Assembly (NCBI GenBank): GCA_021129655.1
Contig: JAJOLC010000048.1
Location: 1-40,918 of the forward strand
Length of the DNA: 40,918 nucleotides
Source of the DNA: Minisyncoccota bacterium
Lineage (GTDB): Bacteria > Patescibacteriota > Minisyncoccia > Phycocordibacterales > UBA918
Reading direction: 5' to 3'
Notes under the pieces: generated by a model
What the model saw: the letters and a program-made list of their open reading frames with translations, nothing else
What the model was told of the DNA's origin: nothing
Database searches by the model: none
Shown here: positions 18,253 through 38,348 of the stretch, piece by piece
Position numbering within the stretch: position 1 is the stretch's first letter
Layout: every line of letters begins with the position of its first letter
Made by a program: the position numbers and the translations under genes

Positions 18253-18579
18253 TTATGCTGCTTTAGCTGCCTTTGCTGCTGTGATTTCAGCTTCCTTCTT
18301 CTTCTGTTCTAGCTCCTTCTGCATCTTACCTCCGTGTCGATGGAACTTCTTAGTTGGAGAAAATTCTCCAAGCTTGTGTCCCACCATTTCTTCTGCGACT
18401 AGAACATCAAGATGATCTCGTCCGTTATGGACACCAAAAGTGAAACCTACCATTTCTGGGGAAATCACGGAATTACGTGCCCAAGTCTTGATGACATCAC
18501 CCTCTCCGGCTTTCTTTCCGGCGATCTTTTTGAGGAGCTTTGCGTCTACGTATGGTCCTTTATAGAGTGATCGTGACAT
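18253..18579 (-). CDS. rpsS: 30S ribosomal protein S19 with Lys/Ala-rich C-terminal tail
   Basis: [35 protein letters not shown]. Tail: [21 protein letters not shown]. Confidence 0.95.
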
Positions 18580-18813
18580 ATTAATTTTTTACGTATAAAT
18601 CCGCACGTAACAGGTGCGGGGGTGAGAATCCCTATTAAAGACAGGTAACGGCCGGCCTTAGAAGAGATTCCCACTCGTTACTTCGGTTTGTACTTGCAAG
18701 CGAGCTGAGAGAAATGAACACAAGTATTCATTTCCAAGCGAGCGCAGCAAGCAAGTTTACTTACTTCAATATGTATCACTAGATAGGTAATACAAATTTG
18801 AGATTGGAACTGC

Positions 18814-19185
18814 ATGAGAATACCTAAAATAACCAGAAAAGTCAACAAAATATGCTATGCTCGACGAATGCCGAAACAACGTGGAAAAGAACACACCACC
18901 CTGACCGAAACTGCCAAATTAGTAGTGAAGGAGATTAAGCGTATTCCGGGGATAAAAATGGTCGCTCCTGGCCAAATTAACGTTACTAAAGGCAGTAACG
19001 CTGGAAAACGCTTCGTTACCGTGGTCTACACTCGAGCCGGTTGTGAGCTGATAATTTCAGGCCAAAGCACCCAAAAAGTAGCTGTGCATATGTCTAATAC
19101 TAAAGATATTATACCGGCTCTGAAAAAAGCTAAATCCTTACGCGAATTCACCTTTAAAGAGAGGGAGCGGAAGCCTGGGATATAA
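18814..19185 (+). CDS. Hypothetical basic 123-aa protein
   Basis: The only plus-strand ORF inside the S10 cluster. It ends at the convergent terminator 19185-19221. The segment GKEHTTLTETAKLVVKEIKRIPGIKMVAPGQI...GCELIISGQSTQKVAVH faintly recalls DUF2103-type proteins, from memory only and unverified. Confidence 0.45.
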   Translation: MRIPKITRKVNKICYARRMPKQRGKEHTTLTETAKLVVKEIKRIPGIKMVAPGQINVTKGSNAGKRFVTVVYTRAGCELIISGQSTQKVAVHMSNTKDIIPALKKAKSLREFTFKERERKPGI

Positions 19186-19221
19186 GAAAAGGCCGGAAAG
19201 CTTTGCTTTCCGGCCTTTTCT
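19185..19221. terminator. Bidirectional terminator between the convergent 123-aa ORF and the acidic protein gene
   Basis: AGAAAAGGCCGGAAAGC ttt GCTTTCCGGCCTTTTCT. Confidence 0.8.
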
Positions 19222-19229
19222 TATACTTT

Positions 19230-20699
19230 CTACAGTTCGTCCATCGCGTCATCAATTGCATCTTCTGCATCCTCTACGTATTCTTCTACATCATCCCAAT
19301 CCTCATCATCGAAGGCATCTTCTGCTTTCTCTAAAAACTCTTCTGCTTCTTCCAGAATCTCTTCGGCGTCCCTGGTGCTATCGCCGTCCTCTTCAGCCTC
19401 TTCTACCTCGTCCCAAGCATCATCCAGCTCGTCCTTCAGGTCATCAATCATTTCTTCGGCATCATCTTCTTCATCTGAACCACCTACTGAATCTAACGCA
19501 TCGTCAATTTCATCTTCTGCCTTCTCTGCAAAATCCAAAGCAGCTTGCCAATCCTCATCATCTTGGGCTGATTCTGCTCGTTTTATATTTCGCTCAGCAT
19601 CGTCAAGCAAATCTTCAGCATCATCCACATCCTCTCCGTCCTCATCTGCTTCGTCAATTTCATCTTCTGCTTCTTCATAAGCATCCTTTGCGTCTTCTAC
19701 CGCATCATTAGCATCTCGTTCAGTCACAATCTCAATTTCATCACGAGCGTCTTCAAGTGATTCTTCTGCATCAAGAGCATCGCTGACGGCCTGTCGATAT
19801 ACGCCGTCGTCAAATGACTCCTCTGCATCCTCCATTAAACGCTCAGCCTTCTTTAGTAGACCCGGAGCATCATTAACATCAATATCGTTATCTTCTGCTT
19901 CTTCAATCAAATCATCAATATCTTCTAACAAGTCCTGGACGTCGTCCAACAAGTCTTCAGCCTCACTCTTTTCAGATTCTCCGCCAGCATCTTCTAGCAC
20001 ATCGGTTGCTTCATCAAGCACCTCATCAGCCAATTTTTCTGCCTCTTCGTAATCACCGTCGAAGTAAAGCATCATAGCGTCAAACAAGTCCTCGACAATA
20101 CCGCGCAAATCATCTTCCATCTCATCAATATCTTCTTCATCATCACCGTCTTCACGGGCATCATCTATCTGATCTTCAGCACCGGTAATCATTTGCATTG
20201 CATCTTCAATAGCATCACCTGCATCTACCCTGTCCTCAGCATCTACATCAATTGATGCTCCTGCCACCTGCGGCTGTGGAACTGGTGAGAGTATTGCAAC
20301 TGGTGCTTGAGCCACTTGTTCAGCTTTCTTGGCCTCTAAACTAGCCAACAAATCAAGCAGATATGCCGCTTGTGATTTAGGACCAAATATTCCACTGGTT
20401 GGAGAAACGCCTTTTGCTTCTTGCCATTTAATTACTCCGGCCTCAGTCAAACTGCCGAATTTATTTGTTTCATTACCAGGTGAACCAGGACCCTCAGTAG
20501 CTAACTGAAAACCAGTAGCATTAAGATACTTCTGCAGGCAGCGGACGTTCTCATTAATTACCCCCATTTCTAGAGTGCCAGAGAAAGAACACTCATTTGC
20601 AGACTGTGCTTGTGATACTGAAGGAAAAACAAAAACTATTGCCAGAATAGCAGCTGCAACGATAAATAATGACGAACGTGAAAAGACTGAGGCTTTCAT
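19230..20699 (-). CDS. Secreted peptidoglycan-binding-domain protein with a ~340-aa hyper-acidic helical-repeat tail
   Basis: Signal peptide (..FVFPSVSQAQS). PG_binding_1-like segment (CLQKYLNATGF...FGSLTEAGVIKWQEAKGVSPTSGIFGPKSQAAYL). The tail is ~47% Asp+Glu by hand count. An F/A-D-D-x-D-W/Y motif recurs four times about 84 residues apart. Confidence 0.75.
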   Translation of the reverse strand: MKASVFSRSSLFIVAAAILAIVFVFPSVSQAQSANECSFSGTLEMGVINENVRCLQKYLNATGFQLATEGPGSPGNETNKFGSLTEAGVIKWQEAKGVSPTSGIFGPKSQAAYLLDLLASLEAKKAEQVAQAPVAILSPVPQPQVAGASIDVDAEDRVDAGDAIEDAMQMITGAEDQIDDAREDGDDEEDIDEMEDDLRGIVEDLFDAMMLYFDGDYEEAEKLADEVLDEATDVLEDAGGESEKSEAEDLLDDVQDLLEDIDDLIEEAEDNDIDVNDAPGLLKKAERLMEDAEESFDDGVYRQAVSDALDAEESLEDARDEIEIVTERDANDAVEDAKDAYEEAEDEIDEADEDGEDVDDAEDLLDDAERNIKRAESAQDDEDWQAALDFAEKAEDEIDDALDSVGGSDEEDDAEEMIDDLKDELDDAWDEVEEAEEDGDSTRDAEEILEEAEEFLEKAEDAFDDEDWDDVEEYVEDAEDAIDDAMDEL

Positions 20700-20731: not shown

Positions 20732-20740
20732 ATTGTACCA
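20732..20740 (-). promoter_or_regulatory. Extended -10 TGGTACAAT, putative promoter of the acidic PG-binding protein gene
   Basis: Lies between the rplB terminator and the ATG at 20699. Confidence 0.4.
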
Positions 20741-20842
20741 TTTTAGCTTAAACATAAGAGTATGCTTATTTACCAACTTAACAGTGGTTATATTCTTATG
20801 ACTAAGTATCGGTCACAGCTTAAGTCTTTCAGGTATGAGATA

Positions 20843-20881
20843 AAAATAAAAGCCTCGGGCATTGCCCGAGGCTTTTATTTT
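20843..20881 (-). terminator. Terminator directly after rplB
   Basis: AAAATAAAAGCCTCGGGC att GCCCGAGGCTTTTATTTT. Confidence 0.8.
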
Positions 20882-20884
20882 TAT

Positions 20885-21745
20885 CTACCGTTTTCCGCCC
20901 ATGATTCGTCCTGGCTTTCGCCGAGAGATAATGAGTTTATTTGAGTACTTCTTTGGTGAACGAGTCTTCTGACCCTTTCCGGTTGGTCGCCCCTGCTTGG
21001 TTCGCTGGCGACGGTGTCCCCGTGGAGATTTACCTTCACCACCTCCATGTGGGTGATCAACTGCGTTCTTTGCTGCACCACGAGTCTTCGGTCGAAGTCC
21101 CATGTGTCGTGCTCGTCCCGCCTTTCCAATGCTTACCAAACGGTTTTCATCGTTTGATACAACACCGATAGAAGCCCAAGCTGTGTTCATTACCTTACGT
21201 ATTTCCGAAGATGGCATTTTCAATGAAGTGTATTTTGCATCCTGCGCAACAACTTCAACTGAGCTTCCGGCAGAACGTGCGATACGTGAACCTGCTCCAG
21301 GATTTATTTCTACATTGTAGACAGTTGTCCCGACTGGAATTGCTGCTAATGGTAGTCTGTTTCCAGACTGAATTTTTGCTGTTTCAGAAACGATGATTTG
21401 GTCACCCTTCTTCATGTCTTCTGTAGCAATAATGTAGCGTCGCTCACCATCTGCGTAACAGATGAGGGCTACGAAACCAGTTCGGTTCGGGTCGTACTCG
21501 ATAGTTTCTACTGTAGCTGGCACATCCTTCTTGTCGTACTTGAAGTCGACCAGTCGGTATGTTCGCTTATTTCCACCACCACGATAGTGAGTAGTGATTC
21601 GTCCATCACTGTTTCGTCCACCAGTACTTCGCTTACCCTTTGTAAGTGATTTTAGGGGATTACTTTGAGTAGTGGTTAGTTTTTTCCTGTATTCAATGAC
21701 TGACCCATCACGTCGTCCAGGAGATGTTGGTTTGTACTTTTTCAT
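20885..21745 (-). CDS. rplB: 50S ribosomal protein L2
   Basis: 286 aa. GRNSDGRITTHYRGGG.KR.YR.VDF, GGGEGKSPRG. Confidence 0.95.
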   Translation of the reverse strand: MKKYKPTSPGRRDGSVIEYRKKLTTTQSNPLKSLTKGKRSTGGRNSDGRITTHYRGGGNKRTYRLVDFKYDKKDVPATVETIEYDPNRTGFVALICYADGERRYIIATEDMKKGDQIIVSETAKIQSGNRLPLAAIPVGTTVYNVEINPGAGSRIARSAGSSVEVVAQDAKYTSLKMPSSEIRKVMNTAWASIGVVSNDENRLVSIGKAGRARHMGLRPKTRGAAKNAVDHPHGGGEGKSPRGHRRQRTKQGRPTGKGQKTRSPKKYSNKLIISRRKPGRIMGGKR

Positions 21746-23440: not shown

Positions 23441-23484
23441 TCTTGTATGAACCTAATTAATAAAGCGCTTTAATAACATAAAAT

Positions 23485-23650
23485 GTCAGAAGGTGTTTGT
23501 AAAAATTTGAGATACAAAAGTGCTGAAAATCTAGCAAGAAATAATTTTGTAGATTTAAACTGTATTCTTATACAGAGAGAATCTACAAAATAATTTATTA
23601 AAAATTTTGAGTGCTGACTATCCAAATTTTTTCAAATAACTTCTCTAGAC
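23485..23650. repeat. ~165-nt AT-rich nested imperfect palindrome upstream of rplC
   Basis: Outer arms 23485-23509 / 23623-23650. Middle arms AAATAATTTTGTAGATT (23539-23555) / AATCTACAAAATAATTT (23580-23596). Inner stem CTGTAT/ATACAG. Confidence 0.7.
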
Positions 23651-23657
23651 CCATACA

Positions 23658-23713
23658 ACAAATCGCGCCGTTTACTGGCGAGCACAAGCTCGCCGATAAA
23701 CGGCGCGATTTGT
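23658..23713. repeat. GC-rich ~25-bp hairpin with ACAA loop and no U-run
   Basis: ACAAATCGCGCCGTTTA-CTGGCGAGC acaa GCTCGCCGA-TAAACGGCGCGATTTGT. Confidence 0.8.
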
Positions 23714-23812
23714 GCCCATTGGTCCGGAAACTAGTTCCGTACATAGGTCTTTAAAGCTGGGGTTAGTATACGGATTTATCTATAAAACACAAGTCTATTT
23801 TTATCTTTTTGC

Positions 23813-23840
23813 TTGCAATCAAATAAATACTGAGTATAGT
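23813..23840 (+). promoter_or_regulatory. Putative promoter of the 82-aa orphan ORF
   Basis: TTGCAA, 16 nt, TATAGT. Confidence 0.4.
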
Positions 23841-23874
23841 CGTAATTAGAAAAGAAATTTATGAGGAGAATCGT

Positions 23875-24123
23875 ATGAGAAAACTTACAGCTGTAGTAAT
23901 TGCACTTATGGAGATGCCATCGAAAAGGATACCTTCATTACCTCTGAACATCGTGATTACTGATTTGAATATGGATATTGAAAGAATAATCAAAAATTGG
24001 AGAGGCGAAGAAGAGAAGTCAAAAACTAATCAAAGGATGCAGATTAGAACATATGAAGCTAATCAGCGGCACACATTAAGGAAAGTTCATTTAAGAAGAC
24101 AAAATGTCTCACGCGGACATTAA
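23875..24123 (+). CDS. Orphan 82-aa basic ORF with its own promoter and strong SD
   Basis: TTGCAA-16 nt-TATAGT at 23813-23840. GAGGAG lies 6 nt before the ATG. I recognise no family, so the coding status is uncertain. Confidence 0.35.
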   Translation: MRKLTAVVIALMEMPSKRIPSLPLNIVITDLNMDIERIIKNWRGEEEKSKTNQRMQIRTYEANQRHTLRKVHLRRQNVSRGH

Positions 24124-24231
24124 GTAAAATTTGCAGCCCACTGCAAGCTATTTCTCCCCTAGGGAGGGGTCGAAATATCTTAAGTGTCTGCATATTTTCG
24201 CAATAGCTCCTGAGTGGAGCTTTATTCAAAC

Positions 24232-24270
24232 AAAAAAGACCCTGTTTATTTAAACTGGGTCCTTATTTTA
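24232..24270. terminator. Bidirectional terminator between the two orphan small ORFs
   Basis: AAAAAAGACCC..GGGTC, with a U-run on the minus strand. Confidence 0.55.
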
Positions 24271-24287
24271 ATACTATTTTGTATCTC

Positions 24288-24413
24288 TTACCCTACGATT
24301 GCGGGTGCAATTTGCATGTAAGCTAATACGCCAATTGTGGCCAAACTGAGACACTGAACCATCCAGCTATTCTCTGTTTGAAACGTTATATTATTTGGTT
24401 CTAAGTTTTCCAT
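24288..24413 (-). CDS. Possible 41-aa hydrophobic peptide
   Basis: Hand translation: MENLEPNNITFQTENSWMVQCLSLATIGVLAYMQIAPAIVG, TAA stop, followed by terminator 24232-24270. No SD. Below the ORF-track length cutoff. Confidence 0.2.
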   Translation of the reverse strand: MENLEPNNITFQTENSWMVQCLSLATIGVLAYMQIAPAIVG

Positions 24414-24534
24414 AAAACTTTATATTAAAGAACAATTTTTAAAGAACAATTTCTAGGCTTCTCTTCTGATCTCTTCAGATTACTACTAAAGTCTACTTAG
24501 TGACACTTTACTTCTCTTCAAAGCTTGGCGTCTT

Positions 24535-24578
24535 ACAACAGAGAAAGGCGAGCCCTATGCGGGCTCGCCTCCTGTTGT
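24535..24578. repeat. Two-tier hairpin (7 bp + 9 bp) sharing the GGCGAGC/GCTCGCC core with 23658-23713
   Basis: ACAACAG agaaa GGCGAGCCC tatgc GGGCTCGCC tc CTGTTGT. Confidence 0.75.
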
Positions 24579-24637
24579 TCTTATATAGTATATTCTAGCG
24601 GGAATACCGCAACACTGTAATGTGGATAACTACAGAT

Positions 24638-24668
24638 AACAAAAAACACCCGGTGGGTGTTTTTTGTT
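24638..24668. terminator. Strong bidirectional terminator ~170 nt downstream of rpsJ
   Basis: AACAAAAAACACCC ggt GGGTGTTTTTTGTT. Confidence 0.8.
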
Positions 24669-24835
24669 TTAGCATCAGATTGCCAGCTGTACGGAGCGCG
24701 ACAACACTCTGTAAAGAATGATACTGAGCTCCGCTAGCTCAGCGCTACTACTGAGCAATACGAGAGAAATAAAAGTGGCGTTAGTCCTTTTTATTTCCGA
24801 GTGAGCGCTGGTAGAAAGACAAGCTTCAGCTTGGC

Positions 24836-27395: not shown

Positions 27396-29576
27396 CTAGT
27401 CTTCGTCACTAACTCCTCGCGCTTTTTTGATTTCAGCAGCAACATTTGGTGGTACTACTTCGTAGTGGTCAAACTCCATTGTCATTGACGCTCGTCCTTG
27501 AGTCATTGAACGTAGAGTATTTGTGTAGCCAAACATTTCTGAAAGAGGAACCTTTGCATTAACAATTGTCTTACCTCCCAACTCTTCAGACCCTTCCACC
27601 TGTCCGCGTTTTGAAGAAATGTTTCCATTAACATCTCCCAGGTATTCCTCTGGAGTTCGCACCTCAACCTTCATGATTGGCTCTAAGATAACTGCATTAG
27701 CTCTCTTTGCACCCTCCTTGAACGCTTGAATACCAGCTAGCTTGAAAGCAATCTCACTTGAGTCGACGTCGTGGAATGAACCATCGTAAAGCTCAACTGA
27801 AACATCTTCCATTTTGTATCCGGCCACCATACCTCGGCTCATAGCTTCTTTACACCCCTTCATTACAGCTGGAATATACTCTTGTGGAATAACACCTCCC
27901 TTAATACTGTTAATGAATTCAAAGTGGTCTTCTCTAGTTACATTCTTTGGCAGCTTCTTTGGCTCTCCGTCGGCATCTAGTTCAAGTGCTTCTAGAGGTT
28001 TGATTCTAATTTTCACATGACCGTACTGACCTCGTCCACCAGACTGCTTAACGTACTTATGTTCTGCCTCAGCCTCTCGTTGAATTGTTTCTCGGTATGC
28101 CACCTGCGGCTTTCCGATATTTGCCTCTACGCCAAACTCTCGCTTCATTCGGTCAACTAAAATGTCTAGATGGAGTTCACCCATTCCTGCAATAATAGTT
28201 TCTAACGTCTCTTCATCAGTAGAAACTTTGAAGGTTGGGTCTTCATCAGATAGCCGCTTTAGAGCAACACCCATTTTTTCCTGATCATTCTTAGTTTTTG
28301 GCTCTACTCGTACTGCCACCACTGGTTCTGGGAAAGTGATAGTTTCAAGTAGAATTTGGTTATCCAAGTCACAAAGAGTGTGTGATGTTTTCACCTCCTT
28401 AATTCCTACTGCTGCAGCAATCTCTCCCGCGTACACTTCCTCTACTTCTTCTCGCTTATCAGCCATTAATCGTACGATACGACCGACTCTTTCTTTATTT
28501 CCAGTTGAAGAATTCACGATGTACGTACCTGACTTAACTACTCCAGAATAAACTCTAAAGAAAGCTAACTGTCCTACAAATTTGTCGTCTTGTAGCTTAA
28601 ACACTAGAGCACTGAAAGGTTCTTCGTCAGAAGGCTTTCGTGTTACGACAACTTCTTCATCCTTAGGGTCGGTTCCTTGTACGTCTTCTAGATCAAGTGG
28701 TGAAGGAAGGTAATCTACCACTGCATCTAGCACAAGTTGTACACCGATGTTTTGAAGTGCTGTTCCAGCCATCACTGGGAAGATTTCGTTAGCCAATACA
28801 GCCTTTCGGAGAGTCTTCTTAAGATCTTCATTTGAAGGTTCGTTACCTTCTAGAAAAGCCTCCATCAATTCGTCATCATGCTCAACTACTCGTTCGATAA
28901 GTTCTGCTCGTCGAGCTTCAGCCTCAGCTTTGAATTCTTCAGGGACATCACCTTCAGTCACATCCATGCCCATTTCTCCAGCAAAAGTGTATGCCTTCAT
29001 GGTAATCAAATCAACCACTCCGCTCATGTTGTCTTCAGCCCCCATCGGGATTTGGATTCGACAAGCTTTTTTGGAAAGACGTTCTTCAATAGATTTAACT
29101 GCTGCATCATAATCAGCCCCCAACTTGTCCATCTTGTTTACAAAACAAATTCTAGGAACATTTGCCTCATCAGCATAACCCCAGTTAGTTTCAGTTTGTG
29201 GCTCTACTCCGGCCGCACCATCAAATACAACCACGGCTCCGTCGAGTACACGCATAGACCGCTTTACTTCAGCAGTAAAATCAATGTGACCTGGTGTGTC
29301 AATAATGTTAAAAGTGAACTGCTTGTCTTTATTATCTCGGTCTGTTTCTAGAGTTTTTGACCAGTTACATGAAATAGCCGCTGCAGTAATAGTAATACCT
29401 CGCTCTCGTTCCTGATCCATCCAGTCGGTAACAGTTTCACCATCGTGAACTTCACCAATCTTGTGACTCATTCCTGTATAAAAAAGAATACGTTCTGAGG
29501 TTGTTGTTTTACCTGCATCTACGTGCGCAACGATACCAAAGTTTCGCAGCTTCTCTAAGGGAAATGCTCGTGCCAT
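27396..29576 (-). CDS. fusA: Elongation factor G
   Basis: 726 aa. AHVDAGKTTTSERIL, DTPGHIDF, NKMDK. Confidence 0.98.
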   Translation of the reverse strand: MARAFPLEKLRNFGIVAHVDAGKTTTSERILFYTGMSHKIGEVHDGETVTDWMDQERERGITITAAAISCNWSKTLETDRDNKDKQFTFNIIDTPGHIDFTAEVKRSMRVLDGAVVVFDGAAGVEPQTETNWGYADEANVPRICFVNKMDKLGADYDAAVKSIEERLSKKACRIQIPMGAEDNMSGVVDLITMKAYTFAGEMGMDVTEGDVPEEFKAEAEARRAELIERVVEHDDELMEAFLEGNEPSNEDLKKTLRKAVLANEIFPVMAGTALQNIGVQLVLDAVVDYLPSPLDLEDVQGTDPKDEEVVVTRKPSDEEPFSALVFKLQDDKFVGQLAFFRVYSGVVKSGTYIVNSSTGNKERVGRIVRLMADKREEVEEVYAGEIAAAVGIKEVKTSHTLCDLDNQILLETITFPEPVVAVRVEPKTKNDQEKMGVALKRLSDEDPTFKVSTDEETLETIIAGMGELHLDILVDRMKREFGVEANIGKPQVAYRETIQREAEAEHKYVKQSGGRGQYGHVKIRIKPLEALELDADGEPKKLPKNVTREDHFEFINSIKGGVIPQEYIPAVMKGCKEAMSRGMVAGYKMEDVSVELYDGSFHDVDSSEIAFKLAGIQAFKEGAKRANAVILEPIMKVEVRTPEEYLGDVNGNISSKRGQVEGSEELGGKTIVNAKVPLSEMFGYTNTLRSMTQGRASMTMEFDHYEVVPPNVAAEIKKARGVSDED

Positions 29577-37874: not shown

Positions 37875-38348
37875 TTACCAAGCAAAGTGGGCAAACGCTC
37901 GGTTGGCCTCAGCCATCTTGTGCGTATCCTCCTTCTTTTTCACTGCGTCTCCTTCTTCCTTTGCTGCAAGCATCAGCTCTTTAGCTAGTGACTTATGCAT
38001 TGGAGTTCCTTTCTGCTTACGAGAAACTGCTGTCAGTGACCGTAGCGCTAGTGCTGTTCGTCGTTCCGGTCGTACTTCTCGAGGAACCTGGTAGTTTGCA
38101 CCACCAACTCGTCGTGAACGCACTTCCATTAGAGGACCAGCATTTCGCAATGCAGTTGCGTAAACCTCTAAAGGTTCACCGCCGTCTTCTTTATCATTTT
38201 TGATGGTTTCAAACGCGCTATATACAATCTTGCGTGCGGTCTCCTTCTGACCGTTGAGCATGATGTAGTTGATTAGACGTTCGACATCAACAGAACCGTA
38301 CATAATGTCCGGAGACACTATAGGTCGTTTTTTGATTGGTCGTCGCAT
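37875..38348 (-). CDS. rpsG: 30S ribosomal protein S7
   Basis: 157 aa. LINYIMLNGQKETARKIVYSAF..VEVRSRRVGGANYQVP. Confidence 0.95.
   Translation of the reverse strand: MRRPIKKRPIVSPDIMYGSVDVERLINYIMLNGQKETARKIVYSAFETIKNDKEDGGEPLEVYATALRNAGPLMEVRSRRVGGANYQVPREVRPERRTALALRSLTAVSRKQKGTPMHKSLAKELMLAAKEEGDAVKKKEDTHKMAEANRAFAHFAW

Follow-up and report, generated by a model that had tools for sequence, protein, structure and literature searches.

In Firmicutes, wall and lipoteichoic acids give the cell wall a dense fixed negative charge, through which divalent cations are bound and the surface potential is set. Pneumococcal PspA combines a wall-binding module, a Pro-rich linker and an electronegative α-helical domain, and calsequestrin is an Asp/Glu-rich store of Ca2+ with high capacity and low affinity. 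Here, we describe a gene on the minus strand of a 40,918-nt stretch of DNA from a Minisyncoccota bacterium (contig JAJOLC010000048.1 of assembly GCA_021129655.1, positions 1 to 40,918; hereafter the window), whose product joins a peptidoglycan (PG)-binding domain to a tail of four hyper-acidic helical repeats. The protein is a new, and the most charged, member of a catalogued but unstudied family that joins two Pfam families, PG_binding_1 (PF01471) and DUF4398 (PF14346). Its domain architecture is well supported. As for its function, we propose, with a probability of roughly 40%, that it is an exported, folded polyanion, bound non-covalently to the wall, which would bind cations and set the surface charge.

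DUF4398 is a domain of unknown function (PMC12893005), and it is mentioned in the literature in lists and tables only. The nearest described analogue is LipL71/LruA of Leptospira, an envelope protein in which DUF4398 is found together with LysM (PMC5406399; PMC8951592) and which is reported as required for virulence. Compared by description only, LipL71/LruA differs from the window protein in that it carries LysM instead of PG_binding_1 and is a diderm lipoprotein, and neither acidity nor a repeat array has been reported for it. By analogy with this case, DUF4398 may have been paired independently with wall-binding modules. PA2901 of Pseudomonas aeruginosa (13 kDa), an example of DUF4398 in Pfam, shares with the window protein a helical domain of approximately 80 residues; in the window protein, however, this domain is in tandem, hyper-acidic and fused to PG_binding_1. 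For the PG-binding domain, the best solved match is the N-terminal PG-binding domain of the Zn D-Ala-D-Ala carboxypeptidase of Streptomyces albus G (1LBU). Both proteins belong to PF01471, and the alignment (residues 38-109, E = 0.21) takes in SGTL..G..GE.VR.LQ. The domain of 1LBU carries an enzyme, whereas that of the window protein comes without a catalytic domain. Neither PspA nor calsequestrin showed any sequence or fold relation in the Pfam, PDB and Foldseek searches. The likeness to teichoic acids is a functional analogy only, in that dense negative charge would be expected in the wall. Unlike teichoic acids, the charge is provided by protein carboxylates and not by polyol-phosphate, on a folded rod and not on a flexible chain; the attachment would be by non-covalent domain binding and not by LytR-CpsA-Psr (LCP) ligation to N-acetylmuramic acid, and there is no charge tuning of the D-alanylation type.

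In the Pfam search, PG_binding_1 was matched at residues 50-108 (E = 1.5e-7, 31.9 bits against a cutoff of 23), and DUF4398 was matched by the whole protein (32.4 bits against a cutoff of 27.9). When the repeats were scored singly against DUF4398, repeats 1-4 gave 15.1, 16.0, 20.0 and 28.1 bits and the family consensus repeat 29.3 bits; repeats 3 and 4 and the consensus score better with DUF4398 than with any other family. Because repeats 1-3 alone stay at 15.1-20.0 bits, the kinship of the repeats to DUF4398 is real but marginal. The repeat unit, whose four borders were delimited with a repeat hidden Markov model (HMM) built in this analysis, is 83-87 amino acids (aa) long, compared with 78 positions of the DUF4398 HMM, and it is all-helical in prediction. 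A previous reading of this DNA, made from the sequence only, knew of no described family with this arrangement and suggested DUF5667-like repeats. The first statement has to be corrected, given the DUF4398 match above cutoff and the same architecture in most of at least 236 homologues and in 326 species genomes. The second is not borne out: PF18915 matched repeat 4 only (E = 0.16, 12.8 bits against a cutoff of 27). Nothing exceeded the threshold in the NCBIfam scan, where SEC10/PgrA reached merely 20.5 bits against a cutoff of 70. The names HEPN, PTS-IIA, TPR and "chromosome segregation ATPase", which appear in some sources, were rejected as sub-threshold matches typical of helical bundles. 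For the N-terminal part, the layout given by the sequence-only reading holds. The signal peptide is supported by a hydrophobic N-terminus, read in the sequence and present likewise in 106 of 120 homologues; the PG_binding_1-like module is the above-cutoff PF01471 match; and the Ala/Pro/Val/Gln linker, around residues 124-150, is composed of these four residues by about two thirds and is predicted to be disordered.

The tail (residues 151-489) consists of Asp and Glu at 159 of 339 positions (46.9%), with 19 Lys and Arg and no His; the earlier hand count of acidic residues, given with the remark that basic ones are few, was exact. Copies of the motif [F/A]-D-D-x-D-[W/Y]-x-x-A lie at residues 212, 295, 378 and 462, that is, at spacings of 83, 83 and 84. 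The earlier claim of four copies about 84 residues apart is thus real, and the periodicity exceeds that of every composition-preserving shuffle: autocorrelation of the tail with BLOSUM62 gave z = 8.8 at a shift of 167, z = 6.4 at a shift of 84 and z = 7.0 at a shift of 7 (the heptad), and the maximum among 1000 shuffles was 5.05. The AE-x-LL helix said to precede each motif was found directly ahead of three copies (residues 285, 361 and 445) and not of the first. Local alignment between repeats gave z = 8.6-13.1 for the pairs 1-3, 2-3, 2-4 and 3-4; the pairs 1-2 (z = 2.0) and 1-4 (z = 3.5) are weak. At the DNA level, the repeats are merely 50-57% identical to each other, so the array is old and has been maintained. 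The same figure rules out a recent duplication of DNA, and Tandem Repeats Finder shows short local arrays only. The share of Asp and Glu in the 24 other tabulated window proteins is 4-19%, which indicates that the acidity is a trait of this gene and not of the proteome; proteome acidity of the halophile type is ruled out by the same ordinary values.

Structure prediction gives these repeats a definite fold. The full-length AlphaFold2 (AF2) model, made with an alignment of 65 sequences, has a predicted local distance difference test score (pLDDT) of 89.7 and a predicted template modeling score (pTM) of 0.50. In this model, the tail forms twelve helices arranged as four three-helix units, which are joined by short Gly-containing links of 3-6 residues. 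A model of a single repeat, made with 76 repeat sequences, reaches a pLDDT of 97.1 and a pTM of 0.85, with helices at residues 2-31, 37-58 and 62-82. The helical hairpins suggested earlier are therefore replaced by three-helix bundles, in which the recurring motif would be the turn between helices 2 and 3, and the AE-x-LL segment would belong to helix 2. The PG-binding domain is modeled with helices at 50-61, 83-96 and 107-130 (pLDDT 95-98), in line with the three-helix bundle of about 60-70 residues expected of PG_binding_1. A signal-peptide helix at residues 8-24 has low confidence, and the pLDDT falls below 50 at residues 137-150 of the linker. Foldseek searches of PDB with the full and single-repeat models found no match at E ≤ 1e-3; the non-significant matches are generic bundles, such as designed bundles, pectin methylesterase inhibitor, PsbQ and EzrA. 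No significant natural homologue emerged either when PDB was searched by sequence or profile, whether the query was the full-length protein, the repeat profile or the N-terminal domain; the matches were designed helical bundles, consensus TPR proteins and, weakly, 1LBU.

The family is large, patescibacterial and widespread among Paceibacteria (Parcubacteria). There are at least 236 database homologues, the best of which are 45-52% identical over the full length, and all named sources are Patescibacteria (Ca. Nomurabacteria, Kaiserbacteria and Parcubacteria). Most of them carry precomputed PF01471 and PF14346 matches under the automatic name "peptidoglycan-binding protein". A scan with one genome per species found the family in 326 species genomes; the 80 of these that were listed with their taxonomy are all Patescibacteria (Paceibacterota, Wolfe-, Vogel-, Kaiser- and Nomurabacteria, Minisyncoccia, and metagenome-assembled genomes with generic labels). 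A search with the repeat profile yielded 1918 representative clusters at E ≤ 1e-3 and 447 at E ≤ 1e-10. Among the query and its top 120 family members (n = 121), the number of repeats is two in 26, three in 81 and four in 14. Repeats 1 and 4 are universal, and the additional copies are repeats 2 and 3; repeat 2 of the window protein was aligned in 21 of 64 homologues only. Tails of the 120 homologues contain 30-49% Asp and Glu and 1-14% Lys and Arg, and the net charge averages -28 per repeat and -80 per protein. With four repeats against the norm of three, the window protein is the most negative of the 121 compared, with a net charge of about -140 (-29 to -44 per repeat). In the alignment of 338 repeats, Ala and hydrophobic columns alternate with columns of 60-80% Asp or Glu, and Lys and Arg are near zero. 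In these acidic columns the commonest residue accounts for merely 30-60%, which means that Asp and Glu interchange while the charge is kept. Judging from these alignments, acidity is a selected trait of the family and not the outcome of drift.

The other parts of the protein are conserved to different degrees. The PG-binding domain is the most conserved region (56% identity), and the linker is the least conserved one apart from the signal peptide (27%). In 65 sequences, C37, C54, Q56, W92, Q93 and others are invariant, and exactly two Cys are present in 96 of 120 homologues. The family motif is [DE]V[RK]CLQx[YF]LN, which reads NVRCLQKYLN in the window protein, and the C-terminal DEL of the window protein also ends 54 of 120 relatives. 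The sortase motif LPXTG occurs in none of the 120 homologues nor in the window protein, and no lipobox Cys is visible in the window signal peptide; attachment to peptidoglycan would thus be non-covalent. P0001 (Ca. Nomurabacteria, GCA_020632175.1) and P0011 (Ca. Kaiserbacteria, GCA_020428745.1) show the same architecture from end to end, at 48% identity over 100% of the length, and share the Cys pair, the family motif, the acidic repeats and the DEL end. Some relatives are built differently. P0121 (977 aa) combines PG_binding_1, an acidic repeat, a GDSL/SGNH hydrolase and further repeats, and P0131 (1185 aa) a β-propeller with acidic DUF4398-like repeats. P0122 and P0123 are giant proteins of about 2600 aa with up to 31 matched stretches, which could be composition-driven.

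How such a protein may work can be outlined from its parts. It would be exported by the Sec pathway and cleaved near Ala31, after which the three-helix PG_binding_1 domain of about 85 residues, probably held by a disulfide between Cys37 and Cys54, would dock onto murein. Signs of a location outside the cytoplasm are that 106 of 120 homologues begin with a hydrophobic segment and that the PG-binding domain contains the two invariant Cys. A disordered linker of about 35 residues would tether the four DUF4398-type bundles of 83-87 residues, whose cores are expected to consist of Ala, Leu and Ile and whose surfaces almost solely of Asp and Glu. With hardly any basic residues, few salt bridges can form within the helices, and the bundles probably depend on counter-ions to fold. 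The polyanion fixed in the wall zone would concentrate Mg2+, Ca2+ and protons and create a strongly negative surface potential, a physical task that falls to teichoic acids in Firmicutes. Since nearly pure carboxylate surfaces must attract counter-ions, this would be the default physical consequence of placing such a protein on the wall.

Several points weigh against this proposal. No recognizable metal-binding motif was found, and no EF-hand or other metal-binding Pfam match was significant. Of 338 repeats, 18 contain the strict loop DxDxDG, and those of the window protein are not among them; a relaxed acidic version is found in 92, among them repeats 3 and 4 of the window protein. A calcium loop (DxDxDG/EF-hand) was therefore dropped as a defining feature: it is enriched over shuffles, yet covers merely 5% of the repeats in the strict form and 27% in the relaxed one. 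A plain charge carrier would not require a rigid rod of conserved bundles; this may point to a specific binding partner. The assignment to DUF4398 is marginal for repeats 1-3 alone (15-20 bits), and the high AF2 confidence for idealized helical repeats is no proof of folding in vivo at a charge of -140. None of the conserved neighbors indicates cation or wall-polymer metabolism. Furthermore, no literature treats the family, and no experimental or expression evidence was found for any member. No canonical teichoic-acid genes lie within the 40.9-kb window, the part of the host genome examined. A wider idea is that Paceibacteria replace teichoic acids with a PG-docked, cation-dependent protein polyanion, whose length and charge would be tuned by its number of repeats (2, 3 or 4) and which would provide cation homeostasis of the wall and surface charge. 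Its premise is that their small genomes may leave little capacity for biosynthesis of envelope polymers. We found no literature on teichoic acids in Parcubacteria specifically, and it has been proposed that one Patescibacterium may use a rhamnose polysaccharide instead of teichoic acids (PMC11809585). We regard this wider idea as plausible but not likely.

Other functions are conceivable for an exported acidic rod. The bundles, estimated from helix lengths to span approximately 15 nm, may serve as a spacer or adaptor on a flexible tether, which positions a basic partner off the wall; an S-layer protein, a pilus component or, in an episymbiont, a molecule on the surface of the host cell could be such a partner, and the acidity would then be a binding surface. 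Discrete and confidently predicted bundles with short Gly-containing links would suit this role, as would a repeat count quantized at 2, 3 or 4 (26, 81 and 14 of 121), which a length-tuned rod would show. The repeat types are also position-specific and conserved, with 1 and 4 universal and 2 and 3 inserted; the acidic repeat is joined to other modules in P0121 (GDSL hydrolase) and P0131 (β-propeller); and there is weak likeness to rod-forming wall proteins, namely Emb/Ebh (6gv8, E = 7e-4) and the fold of EzrA. However, no partner gene is conserved alongside, the neighbors being housekeeping genes. The surface keeps its charge but not its residue identity, which is unusual for a specific interface, and a pTM of 0.50 does not define how the bundles are placed relative to each other. 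We regard such an adaptor as a serious but rather unlikely alternative. The same quantized repeat number and position-specific repeat types would fit equally an electrostatic shield or decoy against cationic antimicrobial peptides, lysozyme-like enzymes or phage receptor-binding proteins, or a device for the control of hydrolases of the cell itself or of its host. Extreme negative charge outside the membrane is what this idea needs, and some relatives adjoin peptidoglycan enzymes (pairs of Peptidase_M14 genes at 4 loci and YceG/MltG at 4 loci) or, in one case, are fused to a GDSL/SGNH hydrolase. Weak fold likeness to the pectin methylesterase inhibitor bundle (1x91, TM 0.74) has a non-significant E-value, and the structural matches are all generic in this way. 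In addition, enzyme neighbors occur at only about 5% of the loci examined and are absent beside the window gene, so that we consider a shield unlikely.

The position of the gene raises another possibility, namely a cytoplasmic role related to the ribosome, in which the acidic protein would, for example, chaperone basic ribosomal proteins or imitate rRNA towards them. Basic proteins can be chaperoned by polyanions, and the acidic gene lies between rplB (L2) and rpsS (S19) on the same strand. This order is kept by relatives of at least 43% identity, at 17 of 86 fetched loci (two of the 17 are copies of another locus); homologues at the same operon position, which the earlier reading suggested looking for, are found in the closest members of the family. 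However, a signal peptide, PG_binding_1 and an invariant Cys pair do not fit the cytoplasm. Having its own promoter and terminators on both sides, the gene is predicted to form a separate transcription unit that is not co-transcribed with the ribosomal genes. Unrelated and variable cargo shares the rplB-rpsS gap. Moreover, about 68 of 80 loci, those with family members of 41% identity or less, have no ribosomal neighbors; unrelated housekeeping genes are found there, with M14 peptidases or MltG beside a few, and no conserved functional neighbors were found outside the ribosomal clade among the loci examined. As the distant relatives sit elsewhere, no ribosomal role is implied for the protein, and its location appears to be a lineage-specific accident of a split operon. 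A ribosome-linked function deduced from synteny is largely refuted by these loci and by the separate transcription, and we hold it to be very improbable. The chance that the ORF is a low-complexity artefact or a decaying, functionless frame is practically negligible. The composition is indeed biased, and spurious ORFs rich in Ser, Leu and His run on the opposite strand, but full-length identity of 42-52% across species with a conserved hydrophobic register, the presence of the family in 326 species genomes and the age of the maintained repeats (50-57% DNA identity) refute this idea. The wall-bound polyanion remains the proposal that we prefer.

The features of the acidic gene and of its surroundings are collected in Table 1. 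In the window and in 13 relatives, the start codon is preceded at a distance of 25-40 nt by an element of the form TGnTAnAnT, and a scan for the -35/-10 consensus did not pick up this extended -10 of the acidic gene. A hairpin with a T-run comparable to the terminator after rplB is present upstream of the acidic gene in the loci L006, L007, L009, L010 and L015. The convergent DUF2103-like gene, listed as ORF 18814-19185, probably starts at Met19 (window 18868) and not at the listed ATG. Its orthologues are 58-59% identical at the same position in L003 and L006, and it has tblastn matches in 15 of 17 split-operon loci; it is a conserved partner in the clade, with no evident functional link to the acidic gene. 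The gap between rplB and rpsS extends from 2.3 kb in the window, the minimal form, to 7.7 kb in relatives, enlarged examples being L001 (260-7983), L003 (4621-10072) and L007 (2199-8838). With the variable cargo that accumulates there (ParE/RelB toxin-antitoxin, SNase, GNAT, PIN-PhoH, PIG-L and pentapeptide proteins), this interval resembles a small hotspot of integration.

Table 1. Features of the acidic repeat protein gene and its flanks (window positions; residues refer to the encoded protein).
Feature	Position	Strand	Evidence and remarks
Coding sequence of the PG-binding hyper-acidic repeat protein	19230..20699	-	Complete, 489 aa plus stop; ORF listing, full-length homologues 42-52% identical
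Sec-type signal peptide, residues 1-31	20607..20699	-	MK..R n-region, 15-residue hydrophobic core, S-Q-A ahead of the predicted cleavage site; putative cleavage
PG_binding_1 domain, residues 35-115, with family-invariant Cys37 and Cys54	20355..20597	-	Pfam, alignment, AF2
Residues 116-152: end of helix 3, then Ala/Pro/Val/Gln-rich flexible linker	20244..20354	-	Composition, pLDDT
Repeat 1, residues 153-239	19983..20243	-	Net charge -34; N-terminal repeat type; YFDGDY turn; repeat HMM; AF2 helices 152-183, 188-213, 217-237
Repeat 2, residues 240-323	19731..19982	-	Net charge -29; extra repeat; repeat HMM; AF2 helices 243-270, 278-297, 301-321
Repeat 3, residues 324-406	19482..19730	-	Net charge -32; repeat HMM; AF2 helices 327-353, 359-380, 384-404
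Repeat 4, residues 407-489	19233..19481	-	Net charge -44; best conserved repeat; repeat HMM; DUF4398 28.1 bits alone
rplB (L2), upstream flank	20885..21745	-	ORF listing; Ribosomal_L2 in orthologous loci; tblastn 79-91% identity
Terminator-like hairpin (intrinsic) after rplB	20841..20872	-	GCCTCGGGC-AAT-GCCCGAGGC then TTTTATTTTTA; read in sequence
Extended -10 element TGGTACAAT	20732..20740	-	About 32 nt before ATG; read in sequence; putative function
Bidirectional terminator	19187..19219	.	GGCCGGAAAGC-AAA-GCTTTCCGGCC, T-runs on both strands; hairpin 19215-19191; common to the acidic gene and the convergent DUF2103-like gene
DUF2103-like small basic protein, convergent	18868..19185	+	PF09876, E = 3.8e-6; listed ORF 18814-19185
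rpsS (S19), downstream flank	18253..18579	-	ORF listing; Ribosomal_S19 in orthologous loci; tblastn 82-94% identity

The insertion between L2 and S19 is one of several breaks in the str/S10/spc super-operon, which is interrupted by unrelated genes over about 5000-38950 of the window. Between rpsG (37875-38348) and fusA (27396-29576) lie approximately 8 kb with GH15, an ABC-F ATPase, DUF3179 and ORFs without assignment; the fusA-tuf interval holds an ORF of 171 aa, also without assignment, and the secY-adk interval a Band_7/SPFH gene and extra nucleotide kinases. A further break separates S10 from L3. No gene for L30 between S5 and L15 is evident in the window.

Two of the breaks contain candidate RNA leaders. 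The region upstream of rpsS (18580-18845, minus strand) begins with a conserved promoter, TTGACT-N17-TATTCT at 18845-18817. It is followed by a hairpin (18673-18623), in which the stem GGGAAUCUCU/AGGGAUUCUC surrounds the nearly invariant loop AAGGCCGGCCGUUACC, and by a second small hairpin at 18620-18601. With 14 sequences, RNAalifold gave 16 pairs, 11 of them with compensatory changes, and no Rfam match was found. This is a candidate for a new ribosomal-protein leader of the S19-L22-S3 sub-operon that the split of the operon made. The gap between rpsJ (S10) and rplC (L3), at 23441-24835 on the minus strand, is 1.4 kb long, and its longest ORF does not exceed 82 aa. It contains two non-coding blocks (approximately 23793-23634 and 24467-24301) that are 69-89% identical in relatives. 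The block nearer to rplC has a promoter-like CTTG..N17..CCGTATACT, after which comes the conserved RNA GGACCAAUGGGCACAAAUCGCGCCG...GCGAGCUUGUGCUCGC...CGGCGCGAUUUGUUGUAUGGGUC. Its consensus structure from 6 sequences is very stable (-46 kcal/mol), with 32 pairs, 5 of which show compensatory changes. No Rfam match was found for it at E ≤ 1, and it is a candidate leader for the L3-L4-L23-L2 sub-operon.

In this one lineage, the S10/spc ribosomal operon, which normally does not vary, has come apart, and its pieces have acquired new promoters and candidate RNA leaders. The envelopes of Patescibacteria, also known as the candidate phyla radiation (CPR), are almost unknown biochemically, and yet they mediate the episymbiotic lifestyle. 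The acidic protein, shared by hundreds of species, would place 80-170 carboxylates per molecule on the wall (range of the 120 homologues), and this makes it a cheap and testable entry point into these envelopes. If it is not the main wall polyanion, the protein would be one more uncharacterized surface repeat protein. If it is, Patescibacteria would possess a protein-based alternative to teichoic acids. Such a polyanion would be a cell-envelope component of a new class and might help to determine the encounter between episymbiont and host.

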